Shown: in pieces, positions 42,824 through 52,424 of the stretch | How the letters are laid out: each line of letters opens with the position of its first letter | Position numbering within the stretch: position 1 is the first letter of the stretch | IMG/VR virus record: IMGVR_UViG_3300011832_000025 | DNA from: a virus | Taxonomy: Duplodnaviria; Caudoviricetes | Length of the DNA stretch: 64,000 nt | Direction: 5' to 3' (one strand) | Position numbers and translations under genes: made by a program | Notes under the pieces: model-generated | Told to the model about the DNA's origin: nothing | What the model saw: the letters and a program-made list of their open reading frames with translations, nothing else | Databases searched by the model: none

Positions 42824-43255
42824 ATGAACAACACTCTTGATTTTGACCAAGCGGTGAACTTTGTGTCAAAGTGGGTAGCTCAATTGCAATCGTATCTGAG
42901 CGTCAACAGGTGGGCGTACACCAGCGATGGGACGCACCATTGGGGAATTAGCAAGAGCGAGCGCGCAGAACTGGTTGAACATCTTTTTGCAAAAATATGG
43001 CACAGCGATCGCCCTCAAATCCTGATGGAAGCCCTATCGGTGCACCTTTCGTCGCTAACCAACATTTCCAACAAGTACAATCTTCCCAAAACATATGTAA
43101 GTGAGAGTAAAGATACAAACCACGCCACATGGGACACAAAGATTTTTTGTGAAGCTTTGGACTACGATGTGTCGCAGTTGATGAGCATATGGGCCTGTTG
43201 CAACGAAGTGGGCGCGAAATATATGTCCGCGGAAGTCAAAAAGAACAAAATGTGA
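42824..43255 (+). CDS. hypothetical protein, paralog of 42375, tail KNKM
   Basis: Shared N-terminus and HL.SL...LP..Y motifs. Confidence 0.7.
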   Translation: MNNTLDFDQAVNFVSKWVAQLQSYLSVNRWAYTSDGTHHWGISKSERAELVEHLFAKIWHSDRPQILMEALSVHLSSLTNISNKYNLPKTYVSESKDTNHATWDTKIFCEALDYDVSQLMSIWACCNEVGAKYMSAEVKKNKM

Positions 43256-43374
43256 CATGAGCCGCACTTTTCATCGACCAACACGGATACATTCCCATCG
43301 GTCCCCGTCAACAGCGAAGTGGATGAACGCCACCTGAGTAAAATCAGCGCTTTAAAAAATTTTTCAAAAACCTG

Positions 43375-43403
43375 TTGACAAAGAATTTTAAACCCGATAG
43401 CAT
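43375..43403 (+). promoter_or_regulatory. sigma70-type promoter upstream of leader ORF and tRNA array
   Basis: TTGACA-17 nt-TAGCAT. Confidence 0.7.
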
Positions 43404-43487
43404 TACTCACATGGCGGATGTTTCTTCCGCCCTACACCCTGGCGACTTTGAAGTCGCTTTTAACTTAACGAATAAAGGATCTTACTC

Positions 43488-43664
43488 ATGTTCACCGTTT
43501 CCGCCACCGCTACTTCTGCAAGCCGCTCGGCTTCGGGCGTGGCTGCGCGCGCTTCGGGTGCCTTGGTTAAGACCAACGCCTTCGCTGGTGCTGGCTTCGG
43601 CTGGAACCATAATATTCATAATATTTGGGCCTTCGGGACCCTGCGAACAGGTGCGTGTGTGTAA
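43488..43664 (+). CDS. 58-aa leader peptide ORF (not in ORF track)
   Basis: RBS aaagga; MFTVSATATSASRSASGVAARASGALVKTNAFAGAGFGWNHNIHNIWAFGTLRTGACV*. Confidence 0.65.
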   Translation: MFTVSATATSASRSASGVAARASGALVKTNAFAGAGFGWNHNIHNIWAFGTLRTGACV

Positions 43665-43722
43665 GGCTTAGCCAAACCATACAAATGTTCAAAGGGTCCC
43701 AGAAATGGGACCCTTTTGTTTT
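43632..43722 (+). promoter_or_regulatory. attenuator: antiterminator strand (43632-43649) and intrinsic terminator (43691-43722)
   Basis: TTCGGGACCCTGCGAACA pairs with TGTTCAAAGGGTCCCAGAA, mutually exclusive with AAAGGGTCCC-agaaat-GGGACCCTTT-tgtttt. Confidence 0.7.
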
Positions 43723-43786
43723 GTGTTGAAAAATCAAAATTAAGAAAAACGTAATAAATAAGTGGTAAGAAATACTGTTTTAATCA

Positions 43787-44090
43787 GGACGCGGTGCAAC
43801 CAACACCAAATCCAGAACAACCGCCAGAAATGGCCTGTGGCGACGCTAACCACAAGTATTATGGGTCGTATTGAAATCGCAGGAGTTGAGCGTTCAACGC
43901 TTAATCAAATGAAAGGGCAGCATTCAGAACAGCGAATATGTCTCTCCCCGAACAATACGACGCAACCCCATTCAAGAGGTAGCAATCTTGGGTGGCCAGG
44001 TATGGGAGACGATGGATCCATCATTGAACCGCAAGGTTTTACGAAAGTAAAACTGCAGCTAGTGAAATGATCAAAGTGTGATCCGCCCCC
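43787..44090 (+). ncRNA. candidate structured non-coding RNA, family unknown
   Basis: Helices 43865-73/43953-61, 43886-92/43898-904, 44035-42/44047-54 (GAAA loop); several GNRA-like loops; lies at head of tRNA array. Confidence 0.45.
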
Positions 44091-44152
44091 GTAAAAAAAC
44101 AGATAGGTTGTTCGTGCGCGCATTGTTGTTAAACGCACGCATCGCAATATGT

Positions 44153-44229
44153 GGACCCGATAGTTTAATTGGCAAAACGTTCCCACTTTATAGGGAAAGA
44201 CATTGGTTCGAAACCATTTTGGGTCCCCA
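44153..44229 (+). tRNA. atypical tRNA: G-1/C73 (His-like), 8-nt anticodon loop ACTTTATA (possible UUA anticodon)
   Basis: GACCCGA/TTGGGTC acceptor, TTCCC/GGGAA stem, TTCGAAA T-loop, encoded CCA. Confidence 0.7.
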
Positions 44230-44288
44230 AAGATAAAAAAGTTAATCGGTGAGATAATAAAAAGTTTATCGTTGAAAGGTAATAATTT

Positions 44289-44363
44289 GATCGCATAGCT
44301 CAGAGGCAGAGCAACTCCCTGTTAAGGAGTGGGTCGTAGGTTCAATCCCTACTGTGATCGCCA
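44289..44363 (+). tRNA. tRNA-Asn(GTT)
   Basis: Canonical cloverleaf, loop CT-GTT-AA, CCA. Confidence 0.92.
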
Positions 44364-44386
44364 AATTGTAAGCAAAAAAAGTTTAT

Positions 44387-44467
44387 GGACGGTTGGCTGA
44401 GTGGTTTAAGCAACGGACTGTTAATCCGTGGAGAAATCCAACGTAGGTTCGATACCTACACCGTCCG
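44387..44467 (+). tRNA. tRNA with GTT (Asn) anticodon on a class II body (long variable arm); no encoded CCA
   Basis: GGACGGT/ACCGTCC, ACGGA-CT-GTT-AA-TCCGT, V-arm GGAGAAATCCAAC. Confidence 0.85.
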
Positions 44468-44547
44468 AAATTTTCTCAAGTTATTGAAATTGTTGATTTT
44501 TTGTATTGATTTTGTTATACTCCGGAAACAAAATTTTGGGATATATT

Positions 44548-45666
44548 ATGTACAAGAAAATCAAAGAAATTGATATTGAAGAAATCAAAATTGCTATAAG
44601 TAAAACTGTTTCAAAAAGACAAGCAATTGAATTATTAAATTGTAATACGCAGCGTGTAGCCAACTTTCATGCTTTAAATTTTTTAATTGTTAAACATAAG
44701 ATCAATATTGAACATTATGATCCAATGTATAAATACAACAAAATTCCAGATTTCATTAAAATGTCTTACAGCTTGGTTGATGTGGCAAAAAATGTCTGTT
44801 TGGTAAATGACGATGTTTCTAAAATTAGTGCCCGACTTTGCAAAAATATCAAAAAGTACATCAATGAAAACAATTTGGACACATCACATTTTCGTCATTC
44901 TTCTAAAGTCGGGTATAATGTTACACGAACAAACGAAGAAGTTTTTGCTAAAAACAGTGATGTTTCACAATCTACTGTGAAGAAGCGTTTTATAGCAAAG
45001 GTTAAATATGAGTGTGCAGTTTGTGGTGTAGCAAGTTGGAATAACGCTCACTTATCGCTTCAGTTGGATCATATTGATGGTGATAATCAAAACAATCTGA
45101 TAACTAATTTGCGACTTTTATGCCCCAATTGCCATTCCCAAACGGAAAATTTTGGTAGTAAAAATAAAACATTCAAGTTACACAAAAAATCAAATGTAAA
45201 CGATAAAGTTGATTTTACGAGTAAGGCTGTAAAAAAAGACCGTACAAAAAAAGTTAAAGATTTGTTTATTTCAGATAAAGATTTGTTTATTTCAGATAAA
45301 GAAAGGCGTCAATCGCGAGCAGATAAAATTTTGAAAACTTTGAAATCGTCTTCAATCGATTTTTCAAAACACGGTTGGGCAACTCCAGCAAGCAAAATTA
45401 TTGGAGTAGGTCATCAACATGTGGCGCGTTGGATGCGAATGTATGCGGCTGATTTTTATAAGGAGAAGTGTTTTATAAGGAAACCAATGGTTGATTTGGT
45501 TAAAAATTGGAAGGAAGATAAATGTAAAATTAAAAAATGTGAATTTAAAACTATCCTGGCAATGAAAGATAGAGGTTATTCGATAAATAAAATAGCGAAG
45601 AAATACGGAGTGCATCATTCTAGCGTACAAAAAATTTTAAAAACAATTGACACACAAAATAAATAA
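44548..45666 (+). CDS. HNH homing-type endonuclease with C-terminal HTH
   Basis: CAVCG...LQLDHIDGDNQNNLITNLRLLCPNCHSQT; low GC; internal 21-nt tandem duplication (KDLFISD x2). Confidence 0.9.
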   Translation: MYKKIKEIDIEEIKIAISKTVSKRQAIELLNCNTQRVANFHALNFLIVKHKINIEHYDPMYKYNKIPDFIKMSYSLVDVAKNVCLVNDDVSKISARLCKNIKKYINENNLDTSHFRHSSKVGYNVTRTNEEVFAKNSDVSQSTVKKRFIAKVKYECAVCGVASWNNAHLSLQLDHIDGDNQNNLITNLRLLCPNCHSQTENFGSKNKTFKLHKKSNVNDKVDFTSKAVKKDRTKKVKDLFISDKDLFISDKERRQSRADKILKTLKSSSIDFSKHGWATPASKIIGVGHQHVARWMRMYAADFYKEKCFIRKPMVDLVKNWKEDKCKIKKCEFKTILAMKDRGYSINKIAKKYGVHHSSVQKILKTIDTQNK

Positions 45667-45687
45667 TGTAACGTACAAAAATTAAAT

Positions 45688-45763
45688 GCGGGAGTAGCTC
45701 AATTGGTAGAGCGTCGCCTTGCCAAGGCGAAGGTTGCGGAATCGTCCTCCGTCTCCCGCTCCA
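45688..45763 (+). tRNA. tRNA-Gly(GCC), non-canonical T-loop ATCGTCC
   Basis: GCGGGAG/CTCCCGC, loop TT-GCC-AA, T73-CCA. Confidence 0.9.
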
Positions 45764-45771
45764 TTTAAAAT

Positions 45772-45848
45772 GCTTCCTTAGTTCAGTTGGTTAGAACATC
45801 TGATTGTTAATCAGAGGGTCCCCCGTTCGAGTCGGGGAGGAAGCGCCA
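45772..45848 (+). tRNA. tRNA-Asn(GTT)
   Basis: GCTTCCT/AGGAAGC, TCTGA-TT-GTT-AA-TCAGA, CCA. Confidence 0.92.
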
Positions 45849-45991
45849 TCTTCGGGCTGCAAGCGTGTAAGTCGGTGACAACACTGCGTTGAAAACGTAC
45901 TTAGTGAAAGGCTAAGAGGCCAACCAATTTTTCATCCAGACGCTTTCCACAGCGTCTTTCTTTTTTCAAACAGTAGGTCGGTTTTGTAGCT

Positions 45992-46105
45992 TGTGTTGAC
46001 GCGCTGTACTGGCTGAAAGATGTTGGCGCATGTTACGACGAAGTCGTGGCATAAGCCACAACATCGCCACATGCTCAATGCTAACCCATTGTCAACGCAC
46101 ACCAC
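45992..46105 (+). repeat. structured hairpin element, long form, free-standing copy
   Basis: TGTGTTGACGCG...CATTGTCAACGCACACCAC; nearly identical to 49151-49263. Confidence 0.85.
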
Positions 46106-46264
46106 TTTTAGAGGTCTAACAAGTAGCACCGGCTTTGGTCACCGCGATGCACCTCTCGACGTTATTCGGTGTTGTAATGTAAGACCACCACCCGCAAAAA
46201 GAGCGGGCTCTTCCTTTTGCCGCTTGAAGGTGGTATTATCCGCTCGGTCTCAAAGGGGTTGCTT

Positions 46265-46855
46265 ATGAATATTATTGCAAAATTGAACGAGAAGTTGTCA
46301 AAATACACGTCTCCCAAGGTCAATTGGTTGACGAAAAGACCGTGGTTGCTCCAAGTGGTGGGAACAACCTTGTCTTTACTGACTTTGGGGGTGTCCTTGG
46401 CGCTTTTCACGCCCTTTCTCATGTCATCGTATACGTTTTTCGTGTCGACGTTAATTGTAATATTTGGCTTTATCATGGTGCCCCTTCCATCAGCGGTTGT
46501 ATTTTGGCTGTTTGGAAAACACCAAACGCCTCAACGGGAAAAGGTTGTTGAAAAATACACCAATCTTATTCTTAAGAATTTTGCGGAAAGTGAATATTAT
46601 GATATGAAAATTGGGTTGCTAAAAATTCTCAACAATGAACCGTACACGCCTGTGTATTTCTTGGACGAAATGGTTCGATTGAAGGAAATTGCTGATCAGC
46701 AAAGACAAAGAAAAAAAGATGAAAACTCCGTAGCTGTCAATGACTCGTCAACATTGACCGTTTTAATTGAACAAATGGAACAAGATCAAACCGCCAGCCA
46801 GGCTGCAAAAAACGAGATGCGCGAACAGAAATTGAAAAATGTGTTCAAGTTATAA
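46265..46855 (+). CDS. 2-TM membrane protein, possible distant LPxxWW-family member; tail VFKL
   Basis: Two TM segments, similar length and tail. Confidence 0.65.
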   Translation: MNIIAKLNEKLSKYTSPKVNWLTKRPWLLQVVGTTLSLLTLGVSLALFTPFLMSSYTFFVSTLIVIFGFIMVPLPSAVVFWLFGKHQTPQREKVVEKYTNLILKNFAESEYYDMKIGLLKILNNEPYTPVYFLDEMVRLKEIADQQRQRKKDENSVAVNDSSTLTVLIEQMEQDQTASQAAKNEMREQKLKNVFKL

Positions 46856-46891
46856 AAAAAAAGAGGGGTAAACCCCTCTTTTTTGTTGAAC

Positions 46892-47248
46892 TCAACCAAG
46901 TGCTTCAAGTTCTTCCAGTGTGATTTTGCTGGCGGTCATATCGCGTGCAACGGGCGCAATTTTGTGGGTGGCCACAGCGTTGGCGAACGCCTGATAATTT
47001 CCCAAGTAATCGCAGGATTCATAGTCGGGGTCTGCATCCTCCATGACATAGTAGAAATTTTCGTACACACTGTAACGCAGATCCTCCACATTCACGCCCG
47101 CCAGATTGGCTATTTCCTTGCGCTGGACAGTGTGGAACACAACATCGGTGTAATCGGCGTGGTGGGTGGTGTCATAATACTGACCGTCCACAAAAATCGA
47201 CCAGTAGTTTTCATCACTGATCATTACAAGTTCAACGTGACCTTTCAT
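46892..47248 (-). CDS. hypothetical acidic protein
   Basis: RBS gggag; convergent terminator at about 46861-46884. Confidence 0.65.
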   Translation of the reverse strand: MKGHVELVMISDENYWSIFVDGQYYDTTHHADYTDVVFHTVQRKEIANLAGVNVEDLRYSVYENFYYVMEDADPDYESCDYLGNYQAFANAVATHKIAPVARDMTASKITLEELEALG

Positions 47249-47347
47249 GCAGTTCTCCCAAGTTGTGAATGGGGGAAGTATACCACAGGAATTGGGGGAA
47301 AGTGTTAAAAGGATGAAAGTTTTGGAAGGCGTTTAAGTAACAGATAT

Positions 47348-47423
47348 ACTTCGGTAGCTCAATTGGTGGAGCAAAACTCTGATAAAGTTTAGGTTACGGG
47401 TTCGAGTCCCGTCTGAAGTACCA
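47348..47423 (+). tRNA. tRNA-Ile(GAT)
   Basis: ACTTCGG/CTGAAGT, AAACT-CT-GAT-AA-AGTTT, CCA. Confidence 0.9.
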
Positions 47424-47437
47424 AATTGTAATTCTAT

Positions 47438-47573
47438 GGTGATCGTGGCGGGAGTGTGTTGACGCGGTGTATTGGCTTATGCCAATACGAGTATTGTCAA
47501 CGCACACCACGATGTAAACGCACCTGATTGTGAGTCAGGTTTTTTGAGGGTTCAAGTCCCTTCGACCACCCCA
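47438..47573 (+). tRNA. tRNA-His(GTG) with about 60-nt hairpin insert in the D-loop (about 47454-47512)
   Basis: G-1/C73, CCTGA-TT-GTG-AG-TCAGG, T-arm, CCA; one acceptor mismatch. Confidence 0.8.
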
Positions 47574-47582
47574 TTTTTTTAT

Positions 47583-47658
47583 ACCACGGTAGCTCAATTG
47601 GTAGAGCTCTCGGTCGATAACCGAGTGGTCATAGATTCAAATCCTATCCGTGGTACCA
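47583..47658 (+). tRNA. tRNA-Ile(GAT) with C33
   Basis: CTCGG-TC-GAT-AA-CCGAG, CCA. Confidence 0.88.
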
Positions 47659-47663
47659 AATAT

Positions 47664-47740
47664 ACGTCGGTAGCTCAATCGGCAGAGCACTCCCGCAAAT
47701 AAGGGAAAGGTTGTAGGTTCAACTCCTACCTGGCGTGCCA
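47664..47740 (+). tRNA. atypical tRNA with 8-nt anticodon loop GCAAATAA, isotype undetermined
   Basis: ACGTCGG/CTGGCGT-G-CCA; intact D and T arms; TCCC/GGGA stem. Confidence 0.7.
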
Positions 47741-47754
47741 AATTGTAATTCTAT

Positions 47755-47892
47755 GGTGGTCGTGGCGGGAGTGTGTTGACGCGGTGTATTGGCTTATGCC
47801 AATGCTAACGCATTGTCAACGCACACCACGATGTAAACGCACCTGATTGTGAGTCAGGCTTTTTGAGGGTTCAAGTCCCTTCGACCACCCCA
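47755..47892 (+). tRNA. tRNA-His(GTG) with about 60-nt hairpin insert in the D-loop (about 47771-47831)
   Basis: Duplicate of 47438 with perfect acceptor stem. Confidence 0.8.
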
Positions 47893-47902
47893 TTGTTTTT
47901 AT

Positions 47903-47978
47903 ACCACGGTAGCTCAGTTGGTAGAGCTCTCGGTCGATAACCGAGTGGTCATAGGTTCAAATCCTATCCGTGGTACCA
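47903..47978 (+). tRNA. tRNA-Ile(GAT) with C33
   Basis: Duplicate of 47583. Confidence 0.88.
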
Positions 47979-48042
47979 ATATATTGATTTGTAAGTGTAT
48001 TTTATGCTATTATGCGTAATCTTTTACGAGGTGCATAAAATT

Positions 48043-48973
48043 ATGAAGGTTAATCAAGAGCGTGTTAATCAAGCTATTGAATTACGTCGTCAAGGAAAAA
48101 CGTTTGACGAAATAAAGTCTATAATGGGAGCAGATAAAGGGACTTTAAGGAAATGGTTTTCATCTGTAGTTTTTACTCCGGAAGAAACTCTCTTGATAAA
48201 TCAAAATATAGTGTCTCGACGTACAAATCGTTTAAACAAACCTTTGCCACCTGAAAATAAAAAAATAAAAGGCCTGGCTCCAACCGCAAAAAACTATACC
48301 AAATATCTGCAGGCTATTGAATTTCGAAAAAACGGTTGCGGATTAGACGATATAGCGAAGCGCTTGGGTGTTGCTAAGAGTTCGGTTTCACTTTGGGTGC
48401 GGCATATTCAATTAAATGAATATCAAAAAAGGTGTTTAATCGGTTGTGAGCCTGGAAAGATTTCACCTGCCCGGCAAAAAGCCGTTGAGGCGAACCGAAA
48501 AAAATATGCGGATCTGCGTAATACCGCGCGCCAACAAGGTTATGATGAGGCGTTGGGCGATCCAGTGCATGTTGCAGGGTGTATGTTGTATTGGGCTGAA
48601 GGTACTAAATCAATAAATAAGGTTGAATTTTCAAACACCGACGCATCTATGCAGAAAAAATTCAAAAAGTTTCTTGAACATCTCGGAGTTCCTTCTGAAA
48701 AAATAAAATTTTATACGCGTGTCCATAACACAGAAGAAAATGGAACCCACGAAGAATGCAAAAACTTTTGGGCGGAAAAACTAAATATATCCAAGAGTCA
48801 AATCAAAGTGTATGACGCAAAAGATGAAAGATGCTCGTGGAGATAGCAAGACCAAGTCACGCTACCCGTTTGGTGTCGGCCGTCTTGAGGTCCATGACTA
48901 CACAATCATTCAACGCATCTATGGTGGTATCGAGCGCTACATTGGTGAAGAAATTCCATATGGTCGGAAATAA
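48043..48973 (+). pseudogene. HTH plus LAGLIDADG-like homing endonuclease gene, frameshifted by a 7-nt duplication
   Basis: HTH (IAKRLGVAKSSVSLW), LYWAEG, FSNTD; AAAGATG x2 at 48820-48833; removing one copy restores frame to ...YPFGVGRLEV...GRK*. Confidence 0.7.
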
Positions 48974-48997
48974 AGTAAATGTTTTTAAATGTTCTAT

Positions 48998-49083
48998 GGT
49001 GAGCGTGGCGAAATTGGTAGACGTACCGGATTGTGATTCCGGTGCCGCAAGGCGTGAGGGTTCAAGTCCCTTCGTTCACCCCA
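48998..49083 (+). tRNA. tRNA with GTG (His) anticodon and G-1/C73 on a Leu-like class II body
   Basis: D region GGCGAAATTGGTAGACG, V-arm TGCCGCAAGGCGT, CCA. Confidence 0.85.
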
Positions 49084-49124
49084 TATTGTTTGAATTTGAA
49101 TGCGTCAGATGTGGTTGTGTTTTA

Positions 49125-49311
49125 CGGACGTTAGCTCAGTTGGTAGAGCATGTGTTGACGCGATGTATTGGCTTAAAAGATGTTGGCGCATGTTATGACG
49201 AAGTCGTGGCATAAGCCACAACATCGCAACATGCTCAATGCACGCATTGTCAACGCACATCGCGTTCTCTTAACCAGTAGGTCGAAGGTTCGAACCCTTC
49301 ACGTCCCACCA
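49125..49311 (+). tRNA. tRNA-Lys(CTT) interrupted by long-form hairpin element (about 49151-49263) in the 5' anticodon stem; may be non-functional
   Basis: GGACGT/ACGTCC, GCTCAGTTGGTAGAGC, CT-CTT-AA-CCAGT, T-arm, CCA. Confidence 0.7.
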
Positions 49312-49368
49312 AAAGTTTGACTTCCTTGGTGTTTGACCTAAAATAAGACAAACACCATAAGGATTTTT

Positions 49369-49971
49369 ATGACCGAAGATATTCTCAAAAACGTTAATGA
49401 CGCAAAAAGTAAAAAAGAAAAATTGCAGCGTGTTGCGGCACGGACAGGTTTGGGTGCAGCATGTGTTTGGCTGGCGGGGGCATTCATGTCGGTCTCAGCT
49501 GTAACGACAGTGGGGGTCGTGACATTGTGCGCGGCGCAACTGGCAAAAGAATTTTTCGAGCAGAAAGGCCGACGTGATGTGATGCTCAAGCAACGGAACA
49601 TTGCCCAACAATTCGGAACTCCCAACGATGTTGATACCATCAATCAAGCGTTGGACAGTGACGCAAAACAAAACGCGCTGGGCAACAAAATGGCAACCGC
49701 CACTGTATTGATTGCCAGCGCCATTGGCTTGTCTCCGTTTTTGGTTGCATCAAACCCCCCTTCAGGTGTTTTCGTCGGAACCATCATTGTTGGAGCGTTT
49801 GCCGGACTGCGCGCCGCACGCGCTATTGAGAAAAAAGAGCAATCCGACATTCGTTTTTATGGGGTTCAACCCATTGTTGCCGAAAATGTCGTGTCGTCCA
49901 TTTTAAAAGAGCGCGGCATACAAGAAGGTGGAAAAATCGATCTCAAACCATCGCGCATCAAAATGAAGTAA
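49369..49971 (+). CDS. hypothetical membrane protein (two pairs of hydrophobic helices)
   Basis: RBS aagga; architecture like 4558 and 20486; tail RIKMK. Confidence 0.7.
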   Translation: MTEDILKNVNDAKSKKEKLQRVAARTGLGAACVWLAGAFMSVSAVTTVGVVTLCAAQLAKEFFEQKGRRDVMLKQRNIAQQFGTPNDVDTINQALDSDAKQNALGNKMATATVLIASAIGLSPFLVASNPPSGVFVGTIIVGAFAGLRAARAIEKKEQSDIRFYGVQPIVAENVVSSILKERGIQEGGKIDLKPSRIKMK

Positions 49972-50097
49972 TCAGGCAACACATCAGATACAAAAAAAAA
50001 GGCCATTCGTTGAGTGGCTTTTTTGTGTGTGAAATTTAATATTTTAACCCCTTATGTTCTACCATTTTTTATGTGTCCAGTTGTGTTGTAAATATAC

Positions 50098-50175
50098 GCG
50101 TCAATAGCTCAATTCAGGCAGAGCAAAATTCTCCAAAAATTTAGGTTGGGGGTTCGAGTCCCTCTTGGCGCGCCA
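50098..50175 (+). tRNA. tRNA-Trp(CCA) with all-AU anticodon stem
   Basis: AAATT-CT-CCA-AA-AATTT, G73-CCA. Confidence 0.88.
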
Positions 50176-50204
50176 AGTCATTGTTTTTGTTATATTTTTT
50201 TAAT

Positions 50205-50275
50205 ACGTCGTTCGTCCAAGGGTAGGACCCCTGACTCCAAATCAGGTAATGAGAGTTCGAATCTTTCACGGCGTG
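50205..50275 (+). tRNA. tRNA-Trp(CCA) with Glu/Gln-type D-arm; no encoded CCA
   Basis: ACGTCGT/ACGGCGT, GTCC/GGAC D-stem, CCTGA-CT-CCA-AA-TCAGG. Confidence 0.85.
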
Positions 50276-50340
50276 AAATTTTTTAAGTGTTGATATTGTC
50301 CTTCAAAAATGCTATAAAATAGCAAAAATGGAGGCGCAGT

Positions 50341-51738
50341 ATGGATGCTTTTGAAAAAGCTTGTTTATTGGTGCGGCAAGGACATTCCATTATTCAATCT
50401 GCAAAAAAATGCGGCGTGAACGAAGGAACACTTCGTCGCTACATGAAGAAAAACGGTGTGGTATCAGAAGGCCAAAAAATTTTGAAGAAAAACGCGGAAC
50501 AAAAAACTCGAGTTATTGAACTGCGCAAATTGGGCTTATCTTATTCCCAAATTTCTGAAAAGACTAAGTTGTGCATAACGAGTGTTGCAAATTGGTGTTC
50601 GCATATTGTTCTTCAAGAAGAGCAAAAAAAGAAAAACGCACGGGCCCTCGTTGACAAGCAAAAGCAGGCAGTGAAGCTCCGCAAAGAGGGAATGTATATT
50701 ACAGAGATCGCCAAAAAATTGAATTGCTCCAAGGTATCCGTGCATTTGTGGTTGAAAAACCACATTAAGAAATATGGTGATAATCTTGGTTCTGCTTGCC
50801 AAAAAAGAAAAGATTTGAAAAGGGAACTTCAAATTTCCACATTGCACCCTCTAACCGATATTGTGGTCGAAAAACGTAAGATGGGAATGAGCTATTCTGA
50901 AATTTCCGTTGAACTAAAAATAAGTAGTAAACGTGCTCATGATATTATAAAGAAAGCCAATTTATCCGAAACAGAATTATTGGAAGCTAAACGCAATCTC
51001 AAAAAACGCCAACGGTATCTCCTGGACAATGGGTTAATTAAACCTCGTGGCGGCGACCGACTCAACTCCGGCTGGTCCAAGACCGGCTACTACAAGGGTA
51101 TTTATTGCGGCTCCACATATGAATTGTGCTGGGTCATCCATGCGATAGATCATGGTGTGCAATTCAAACGCTTTGAGGGTGTCTTGAAAAAAGATGGTGT
51201 AACCTATATTCCCGACTTTCTGCTCGATGATGGGATCACCATTATTGAACTCAAAGGATACGATGTGCGTGAGAATGTGAACAAAAAAACCAAACTGGCC
51301 GAAAGTCTCGGTTATAAAGTTAATGTGTTGCGCGAACAAGAGTTGCAACCCATATTTGATTATGTGAAGAAACACTACGGTGTGTCGTGGCAAAAATCAT
51401 ACACTCTGTTCGATGGGTTTAAACCAACCTATACATACGAGTGCACCACTTGCTGCAAAACGTTTTCCACGGAGAACAAGCGGCCCATGAAAAACGGCAC
51501 GGTGTTTTGTTCGGGCTCATGTTCGGCCACTCACCGCAATGCTCAAAATAAAACAAACTCCCAAAGTAAAGCGCCAACAACGCAATTCAAATCAAAGTTA
51601 TCGCAAGAGGGTATCGTTAAAGTTTTTTACGCTTCGGGTACATACGCTTCAATTGCCGAACAATACAATATCTCTCAATCCAGTGTGTGTTTCATCAAAA
51701 ACAAGAGAATCCACAAATCCATCACCGAACACCTTTAA
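50341..51738 (+). CDS. multi-HTH PD-(D/E)xK homing-type endonuclease
   Basis: Repeated HTHs (G.SY..IS), GYYKGIYCGSTYEL, YIPDFLL...IIELKG, Cys-rich zinc motif. Confidence 0.8.
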   Translation: MDAFEKACLLVRQGHSIIQSAKKCGVNEGTLRRYMKKNGVVSEGQKILKKNAEQKTRVIELRKLGLSYSQISEKTKLCITSVANWCSHIVLQEEQKKKNARALVDKQKQAVKLRKEGMYITEIAKKLNCSKVSVHLWLKNHIKKYGDNLGSACQKRKDLKRELQISTLHPLTDIVVEKRKMGMSYSEISVELKISSKRAHDIIKKANLSETELLEAKRNLKKRQRYLLDNGLIKPRGGDRLNSGWSKTGYYKGIYCGSTYELCWVIHAIDHGVQFKRFEGVLKKDGVTYIPDFLLDDGITIIELKGYDVRENVNKKTKLAESLGYKVNVLREQELQPIFDYVKKHYGVSWQKSYTLFDGFKPTYTYECTTCCKTFSTENKRPMKNGTVFCSGSCSATHRNAQNKTNSQSKAPTTQFKSKLSQEGIVKVFYASGTYASIAEQYNISQSSVCFIKNKRIHKSITEHL

Positions 51739-51845
51739 TCCCCGCCCACCGTTTGGTGGGCGGCTTTCCGCTGTCTTTTTTTTTAAACCCACCCAATCAA
51801 TGAAAAATGTGCTACCCTTCTTTTTTGGAGTAATAAGGTGCTGCT

Positions 51846-52424
51846 GTGTGCATTGAAGAAAACACCAATTTGCTAATTGAGGCGGCCCGAAAGGGTGACA
51901 CCCCAGAGGTGCAACGTCTTATTCCCTTATCCGATCCAACATGTAATGACAGTCAAGCTTTGGTTTGCGTTGCATCAGGAGGGCACACCCAATGCGTGAG
52001 ACTGCTGATCCCAGTCTCTGTTCTCAAAAGTCCTGCTTTGAATCTGGCCGCTGGAAAGGGGTACACCCAATGCGTAAAGTTGTTACTCCCCGCATATGAT
52101 CTCAAAGCTAAAAGTAGCGCTCTGTTTTGGGCCACAGCCAACGGACACACGGATTGCGTCAAACTGTTGATCCTGGCATCAGACCCCAAGGTTGACAACA
52201 GTTTTGCATTACAAAAAGCTGTTGCAAACGCTCATCAATCCTGCATTGATCTGTTGTATTCCGTCAGTGATCCACACGCAGCACTGCATCAACTGCAACA
52301 GGATTACCCCGATGATGTGAGTATATGGGGTGAATTGGAACAGCGGATTGCCCACGAACAAAACCAAAAGTTGGTCGGCGAAATTGGTGAGACTGTGCGC
52401 GCAAAAATCGACCGCAAAATGTGA
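51846..52424 (+). CDS. ankyrin-repeat protein (array member 1)
   Basis: AL..AA..GHT.CV.LLIP repeats; tail DRKM. Confidence 0.85.
   Translation: MCIEENTNLLIEAARKGDTPEVQRLIPLSDPTCNDSQALVCVASGGHTQCVRLLIPVSVLKSPALNLAAGKGYTQCVKLLLPAYDLKAKSSALFWATANGHTDCVKLLILASDPKVDNSFALQKAVANAHQSCIDLLYSVSDPHAALHQLQQDYPDDVSIWGELEQRIAHEQNQKLVGEIGETVRAKIDRKM

Follow-up and report, generated by a model that had tools for sequence, protein, structure and literature searches.

A hairpin-forming unit of about 61 nucleotides inserted in the tRNA array of a putative large phage-like replicon

The window analyzed here is a stretch of 64,000 nucleotides from a virus of the Caudoviricetes (IMG/VR record IMGVR_UViG_3300011832_000025). 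In its tRNA array, several tRNA genes are interrupted by a short structured element that is also found inserted into itself. This raises the question of whether the element is a new tiny tRNA intron or processing module, or a miniature mobile element that prefers tRNA genes; both had been proposed in an initial annotation made from the letters alone. So far, the element appears as a non-coding, hairpin-forming unit of ~61 nt, specific to the tRNA arrays of one clade of large phage-like replicons. It is best read as a new family of miniature palindromic mobile DNA, resembling REP and RPE repeats and miniature inverted-repeat transposable elements (MITEs), which is confined to redundant tRNA genes and turns them into pseudogenes.

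The repeated unit and its nested copies

The element is a real feature and not a product of chance. The 12-mer TGTGTTGACGCG and the 14-mer ATTGTCAACGCACA each occur four times in the 64 kb, and every occurrence is in one of the four copies that the initial annotation had described as bounded by such terminal motifs. The element begins with TGTG and ends with CACCRC(T). Complementary blocks near the 5' and 3' ends are arranged in the crossing order a b ... a' b'; the a/a' repeat is 9-10 bp long, and the 3' end of the element extends 6-9 nt beyond a'. The short form is predicted to fold as a single long hairpin with imperfect pairing (-29 to -32 kcal/mol, z about -5) and only ~18-20 base pairs, in which the outer stem is TGTGTTGAC/GTCAACGCA and the predicted apical stem is ATTGGC/GCCAAT with the loop TTAT. 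No signal attributable to the element was found in a promoter and terminator scan.

The long form has ~58 extra nucleotides, located in the apical loop of the short-form hairpin. A covariance model (R1), built from nine short copies, gave minus-strand matches to the inner ~60 nt of the long form, with 24.6 bits in the tRNA-Lys copy and 18.8 bits in the copy at a position termed site A. In addition, a repeat search gave 86% inverted similarity over 21 nt between the inner and outer units. The inner part is thus a diverged copy of the unit in the opposite orientation, as had been supposed.

The pairing of the outer stem is retained through changes of U.G to C-G and of A-U to G.U. The crossing complementarity, also described initially, does exist in the sequence, and two pairs of the b-b' helix have changed on both sides, from C-G to U-A in the tRNA-His copy of the related contig L064 and from G-C to A-U in the tRNA-Lys copy of the window. 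This helix has several uncompensated mismatches as well, and the observed value was reached in 14 of 500 shuffles. The nested alternative, GCG/CGC, has no double-sided change. Because a and b abut without a linker, as do a' and b', the geometry implies that a-a' and b-b' would not form together as a normal pseudoknot; an H-type pseudoknot was rejected, both of its connecting loops being of zero length. The two helices may be alternative states, or a sign of templated correction in hairpin DNA. Such correction is also suggested by a copy in L064 (1050-1110, minus strand), in which the 8-nt GCTAACGC between CAAT and ATTG is inverted to GCGTTAGC. This inversion of the hairpin loop suggests the signature of a hairpin at the DNA level.

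Empty and filled sites among related genomes

Among 18 related contigs from other metagenomes, empty sites were found for every insertion; a search of related contigs for insert-free tRNAs had been proposed initially. L021 was found by an exact-pattern scan of JGI metagenomes, in which one of 18 hits was a true relative. L031-L034 and L055-L068 were found via a 118-aa protein encoded in the array, its homologues, and a 154-aa neighbour, and L069-L072 were found via a 196-aa array protein. The contigs of the relatives are 46 to 236 kb long, and contigs with homologues of one array protein reach 367 kb. L031 is 97.7-98% identical to the window over 10 kb and is a separate genome.

Presence/absence polymorphism among the relatives was observed at six sites and at two nesting levels, with all copies in the array, which favours the earlier suggestion of a miniature mobile element with a preference for tRNA genes. 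The insertion targets are the D-loops of three tRNA genes, the 26/27 junction of tRNA-Lys, a position ~10 nt 3' of a tRNA, and the array leader; further copies are nested in the apical loops of copies already present, to a depth of three levels. No target-site duplication was seen in the empty/filled pairs at the six sites. The tRNA sites have each lost 2-6 target bases, among them the conserved A14/G18/G19 region of the D-loop or, in tRNA-Lys, the complete 5' strand of the anticodon stem. The left flanks (GGAG, AGCT, TCGG, AGCA, CTGT, and GTAT) have no motif in common, and a search by hand found neither a common target motif nor a simple junction rule. The outer copies at the six independent sites are all in the tRNA sense; the chance of this is about 1 in 32.

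The D-loop placement in both class-I tRNA-His(GUG) genes of the window was confirmed against insert-free orthologues. The D-loop is empty in 8 relatives. The empty allele, GGCGGAATTGGTAAACGC, is present in L062, L065, L066, L067/68, L069, L071, and L072, and the normal form GCG GAATTGGTAAA CGC was read in L062/63 and in the others of this list. The D-loop is filled in the window (twice), L031 (twice), L021, L055/56, and L064. Filled alleles read GG(A/G)AG-element-GATGTAAA with an identical junction in all, and TTG of AATTGG is missing. One unit (59-61 nt) is inserted in the window, L031, and L064, whereas L021 has two nested units (118 nt) and L055/56 have three (173 nt). In the 173-nt form, a third, AT-rich hairpin unit lies inside a hairpin of the inner unit. 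The filled gene of L064 has the mismatches C7.C66 and A10.C25. Variation of the acceptor pair 4:69 (A.C, A-U, G-C, and G.U) was considered as a trace of selection on the interrupted genes, and was dropped because the same variants occur in empty alleles.

An intact second tRNA-His, of class-II shape, is present in every genome that covers its site, so that loss of the class-I gene seems affordable. This tRNA-His(GUG) of 85 nt has G-1, C73, and an encoded CCA on a Leu/Tyr-like class-II body with a 13-nt variable arm. It was also found in L021, L055, L062, L066, L068, L069, and L072, and is conserved, being identical in some of them. Other class-II-like tRNAs among the relatives are those for Asn, Lys, Cys, and Ile (83-90 nt). 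In the two class-I genes of the window, the anticodon stem together with the TTTTTT or CTTTTT variable loop (47522-47546 and 47842-47864) scores as an intrinsic terminator.

In tRNA-Lys, the copy had been assigned to the anticodon stem, and comparison with insert-free orthologues placed it between A26 and the anticodon loop. Intact genes (...GAGCA GCTGG CTCTTAA CCAGT...) are present in L031, L021, L055, L062, and L072. Only in the window is the site filled, with a 113-nt element and GTT in place of GCTGG at the 26/27 junction. This copy is only 90-92% alike to the other long copies, which suggests that its donor lies outside the sampled copies. The interval between tRNA-Lys and tRNA-Trp (49312-50097) is ~780 bp longer in the window than in L031, and the extra DNA carries a 200-aa open reading frame (49369-49971) from a multi-copy family of ~196-aa proteins in the window. 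As the extra DNA begins directly after the CCA of tRNA-Lys, the interrupted allele may have come by recombination.

The copy at 45992-46105 had been described as free. However, on its left it adjoins the 5' part of a tRNA, which extends as far as the D-loop. At this position, site A, L062 has an intact tRNA-like gene (tRNA-X) without an insert. L066 has one copy, in the D-loop of tRNA-X, and L056 has this D-loop copy and a second copy ~10 nt 3' of tRNA-X. A single copy is present in L055, where it is short, and in the window, where it is long. Since the left flank of the first copy is joined here to the right flank of the second, the single copy is a recombinant of the two site-A copies, and this recombination deleted the 3' half of tRNA-X. 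The target bases missing at filled tRNA-X are CAATGG. In a further tRNA-like gene, tRNA-q, the D-loop is empty also in L055 and L066; AATC is missing at the filled alleles, of which that in L064 has a T-stem mismatch.

Site B lies ~290 nt upstream of the first tRNA. L032 and L071 have a 62-nt diverged copy there, as a clean insertion at GTAT^TAYGGG, L031 and L055 have decayed remnants, and neither L069 nor the window has an insert. In the site-B copy, the 3' end pairs in a nested fashion with an additional 5' block, AGTGGT. From this block, the crossing layout of the other copies may be a derived, 5'-shortened form.

With filters off, R1 gave no significant match in the remaining ~58 kb of the window (best 15 bits, E 0.06) or, in ~134 kb of the relatives, outside the arrays; the genome-wide scatter without tRNA bias that had been named as the counter-case was thus not seen. 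This bias may be partly survivorship, because the rest of these genomes is largely coding. Some arrays are free of copies, namely those of L069 (11 tRNAs) and L057/58 (15 tRNAs in L057). An Rfam scan of 43000-52000 at E up to 1, a search also suggested at the outset, returned tRNAs and three weak small-RNA matches elsewhere, and no family for the element. There was no match by megablast or blastn against phage and plasmid collections; an exact-pattern scan of IMG/VR with three patterns gave chance matches only, and the 19 matches in a scan of GTDB genomes were all chance, in coding DNA. The family has been seen so far in the tRNA array of this clade only. Logan contigs end within the element, as would be expected of a repeat.

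Copies cluster by site rather than by genome: those in tRNA-His are 90-92% alike across genomes, those in tRNA-q 95%, and those at site A 93-95%, whereas the similarity between copies from different sites is 80-93%. For the neighbouring 118-aa gene, these genomes share only 81-90% identity. Either exchange of the array between relatives or constraint on the element would account for this. Co-conversion driven by endonucleases would fit the mosaic spacers in the array. The features of the window are collected in Table 1.

Table 1. Copies of the element, their sites, and the second tRNA-His gene in the window
Feature	Position	Strand	Remarks
Site B, array leader, empty	43854..43862	+	..CCACAAGTAT^TATGGG..; relatives: 62-nt diverged copy or decayed remnants
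Long (two-level) copy at site A	45992..46108	+	Left flank: 5' part of degenerate tRNA-X (8-nt loop); right flank: sequence 3' of tRNA-X in relatives
Inner unit, apical loop of site-A copy, opposite orientation	46017..46076	-	R1 18.8 bits, E 0.006; short form there in L055/L056
Class-I tRNA-His(GUG) gene 1, interrupted in D-loop	47428..47573	+	G-1, C73, encoded CCA
Short copy, 59 nt, D-loop of His gene 1	47455..47513	+	R1 78.9 bits; fold -29 kcal/mol, z -5.0
tRNA-q, 8-nt anticodon loop	47664..47740	+	D-loop empty in window; filled in L062/63, L064, L072
Class-I tRNA-His(GUG) gene 2, interrupted in D-loop	47755..47892	+	Product of tandem duplication
Short copy, 61 nt, D-loop of His gene 2	47772..47832	+	R1 90.3 bits; fold z -5.6
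Intact class-II-shaped tRNA-His(GUG)	48998..49083	+	Redundant isoacceptor; retained in every relative covering the site
tRNA-Lys(CUU) pseudogene	49126..49311	+	G1 lost; anticodon-stem 5' strand GCTGG replaced by element + GTT
Long (two-level) copy in tRNA-Lys	49151..49266	+	Window only
Inner unit, apical loop of Lys copy	49177..49236	-	R1 24.6 bits, E 1.6e-4; inverted similarity

Interpretation of the insertions

Selfish mobile DNA that disrupts tRNA genes is the reading to which a probability of about 0.7 is given. The aligned alleles show separate units whose ends are defined, which have been gained repeatedly at unrelated flanks, have nested in one another, and have recombined. Insertion would take place into exposed or broken DNA of the array. 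Movement might proceed via a single-stranded hairpin and/or through the repair of breaks that the LAGLIDADG and HNH homing endonucleases of the array introduce, and the copies would then spread among co-infecting relatives by gene conversion. The interrupted tRNAs would be inactivated; this would be tolerated, as the array is redundant, with the class-II-type tRNA-His always retained, and the host would provide tRNAs. In E. coli, an aptamer placed in the D-loop of a tRNA made the tRNA undetectable, and fusions in the variable loop worked (PMC5397188).

Several points weigh against selfish mobile DNA. No transposase was seen: ten open reading frames of Y1-transposase size in the window lack such a domain, a weak negative for the window only. 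The left flanks have no target motif, and loss of target bases is atypical of insertions made by a transposase. Uniform orientation at six independent sites fits an RNA-level role too. The interrupted tRNA-His genes are retained in five lineages, and their stems, except in L064, are no worse than those of the empty alleles. Orthologous copies are 92-95% identical compared with 81-90% for the neighbouring gene, which could be due to constraint and not to recent exchange. In addition, the compensatory changes in b-b' hint that a single-stranded fold is under selection or subject to templated correction.

Another explanation is an RNA-level intervening sequence, in which RNase III or a similar enzyme cuts out the hairpin without ligation and a working two-piece tRNA-His, joined through its acceptor and D stems, is left. 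A long hairpin that replaces native loop bases and occurs sporadically among strains is reminiscent of the intervening sequences of rRNA (PMC4990558). The arms of the cloverleaf are still formed in the predicted fold of His gene 2, the copies are all in the sense orientation, the a-a' and b-b' pairings are maintained through changes, and five lineages keep filled His genes. However, a normal L-shape is unlikely after the loss or displacement of A14 and the G18-G19 elbow, and the copies in tRNA-Lys and at site A wreck their genes outright. The filled genes of L064 have additional stem mismatches, the E. coli D-loop fusion was unstable (PMC5397188), and the short form offers few base pairs, imperfectly matched. 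Such excision is considered unlikely. The wider proposal, that (a) the hairpin is cut from tRNA-His leaving a working two-piece tRNA, or (b) insertion is a previously undescribed, protein-light process guided by aligned ends, seems doubtful. In the latter case, the crossing a/a' and b/b' blocks could align the two ends on single-stranded DNA and steer insertion into exposed loops. The former would be the first intervening sequence known in a bacterial-type tRNA; the latter would account for both the D-loop preference and the self-nesting.

Selection might also act at the level of DNA. In this explanation, insertion destroys the recognition site of an array homing endonuclease in conserved D-arm DNA of tRNA genes, and the filled alleles, being immune, are favoured in co-infection. 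The array has an HNH gene and two kinds of LAGLIDADG gene, with turnover between relatives, and SegB of phage T4 provides an earlier example of an endonuclease at work in a tRNA cluster (PMC2330249). At three of the sites the target is the conserved D-loop, the loss of target bases agrees with break repair, and copies cluster by site and not by genome. Nevertheless, a cleavage site is known for none of the array endonucleases, and no correlation of endonuclease content with filled sites was seen: L031 has an intact 307-aa endonuclease gene and an empty tRNA-Lys, whereas the window has this gene frameshifted and tRNA-Lys filled. The nested copies and site B would also be left unexplained. Immunity of filled alleles is therefore judged improbable as the driving force.

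Even less probable is an element that does not move at all, in which nested palindromes would grow in place by template switching during replication and would spread only by gene conversion between similar tRNA genes. The inner unit is indeed an inverted relative of the outer unit, the 8-nt loop is inverted in L064, and the D-arm flanks of tRNA-X and tRNA-q are alike, so that conversion between them is possible. But the flanks of the copies in tRNA-His, in tRNA-Lys, 3' of tRNA-X, and at site B are mutually unrelated, the same inner unit is found within outer copies at three different sites, and it is too diverged from the outer unit for a fresh fold-back copy.

A true intron, removed with ligation of the exons to a mature tRNA, would suit a structured RNA lying in the sense orientation inside tRNA genes, but is very improbable: because target bases (2-6 at the tRNA sites) are replaced, no canonical tRNA could be restored by splicing and at none of the four tRNA sites does an excision regenerate the sequence of the empty allele; tRNA-Lys of the window has lost G1 as well, and the filled tRNAs of L064 have extra stem mismatches; the predicted folds have no bulge-helix-bulge (BHB); no Rfam intron or self-cleaving ribozyme matches at E up to 1; some copies are located outside tRNAs (site B and 3' of tRNA-X); and the zero-length linkers of a-a'/b-b' would preclude a normal pseudoknot. 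The tiny intron or processing module of the initial annotation is not upheld on these grounds.

Read as selfish mobile DNA, the element allows the insertion history of a very small selfish unit to be traced via empty and filled alleles in related phage-like genomes. It also suggests a route for loss of phage tRNA genes, from a first insertion to a second and then to recombination between both copies. The absence of target duplication, the strict orientation, and the odd complementarity of the ends point to an unusual insertion mechanism. The element explains tRNA genes that tRNA finders overlook in such arrays, and tRNA counts of huge phages can be misjudged in this way. If the interrupted tRNA-His genes were functional, they would represent a new type of tRNA processing.

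Surroundings of the element and comparison with known systems

The window did not match phage records. It encodes CysRS, a DNA methylase, and many proteins without a known family, and the replicon is putatively called large and phage-like. ARAGORN and Rfam together gave 12 tRNAs within 44154-50276 and missed the three interrupted genes. The array encodes an HNH endonuclease and LAGLIDADG genes of two kinds with helix-turn-helix (HTH) domains, whose motifs, read from an alignment, are LAGLIEGDG, LAGVLEAEG, and VAGCMLYWAEG; a PDB sequence search with the array HTH proteins gave no match. Between the Asn and Gly tRNAs, the window has the HNH endonuclease gene (44506-45666). At the same position, L055 (11429-12424, minus strand), L062 (3296-4336, minus strand), and L069 (8425-9447) have a LAGLIDADG gene with a double motif, which suggests turnover of endonuclease genes at one site. 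A 307-aa gene with an HTH domain and a single LAGLIDADG motif (48043-48972) has lost its frame in the window through duplication of 7 nt (AAAGATG, near 48820), and is intact in L031 (8283-9206, minus strand).

Three tRNA-like genes have 8-nt anticodon loops, ACTTTATA, GCAAATAA, and GCCATTAA, to which ARAGORN gives no assignment. These are the gene at 44154-44229 of the window, tRNA-q (47664-47740), and tRNA-X, read in L062 (2910-2982, minus strand). They are possible decoders of quadruplets or frameshifts, or possible decoys. The tRNA-Ile(GAU) gene is 76 nt long in the window (47348-47423) and 90 nt long, with a 14-nt hairpin in the variable region, in L055 (9813-9902, minus strand), L062, L064, L066, L067, L069, and L072. 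This hairpin seems to be a second, tolerated type of hairpin insert in the array.

Several known systems were rejected. A group I or II intron or self-cleaving ribozyme has no Rfam core match at E up to 1, and the unit has only 61 nt. The HDV-like, pistol, twister, and hammerhead layouts were rejected because of how the paired blocks are ordered and because Rfam gave no match. For an integron attC site, GTTGACG and TGTCAAC fit neither the RYYYAAC nor the GTTRRRY core. Among the closest systems are the small dispersed repeats of cyanobacteria, which are very small and insert into their own copies; the sequence, host, and target of the present element differ from theirs.

The archaeal introns spliced at BHB motifs in non-canonical positions (PMC3241643) are likewise short inserts in tRNA genes, D-loop positions included. 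The predicted junction folds have a 5-nt/1-nt internal loop in His gene 1 and 1-nt bulges in His gene 2, and not the 3-nt bulges 4 bp apart of a BHB. Moreover, the junction exons are not conserved, copies are also found outside tRNAs, and the context is of the bacterial type (intrinsic terminators and encoded G-1). The intervening sequences of 23S rRNA in Coxiella, Salmonella, and Campylobacter (PMC4990558, PMC2801512) share with the element a stem-loop that replaces a native loop of a stable RNA, a sporadic occurrence among strains or gene copies, and a character deemed selfish. However, excision by RNase III leaves a working fragmented rRNA, whereas the host RNA of the element is a tRNA, for which function after insertion is unlikely.

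Like MITEs and the palindromes derived from IS200/IS605, the element is miniature and non-autonomous and has terminal or subterminal complementarity; it shares with IS200/IS605 the lack of target duplication and a strand bias. It differs from IS200/IS605 in having no conserved left-flank target tetranucleotide, and from both kinds of derivative in forming one long hairpin, not two end hairpins, with the complementary blocks in crossing order. A classical MITE would have a target-site duplication, whereas none was seen at the six sites, and the insertion at site B is clean. No parent insertion sequence or Y1 transposase was found in the window or in the loci of the relatives.

The REP and RPE repeats and other short palindromic repeats (PMC3733652) are also short, non-coding, hairpin-forming, and variable among strains, and can reside in functional genes. 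By the criterion of that work, the element has no GTAG or CGTC end tag, its sole CGTC being internal, 6 nt inside the 3' end of the minus strand (PMC3733652). It also differs in its few copies, in a single tRNA array, its targeting of tRNA genes and of its own loop, its loss of target bases, and its phage-like host. A RAYT (Y1/HUH) transposase was not found among ten suitably sized open reading frames of the window; families of the CGTC type have no dedicated transposase (PMC3733652). The element thus fails the defining features of classical MITEs, REPs, IS200/IS605 derivatives, and introns. By analogy, it would be placed with miniature palindromic mobile DNA, with REP/RPE-type repeats and MITEs as the closest kinds, and the intervening sequence of rRNA might be regarded as its analogue at the RNA level.

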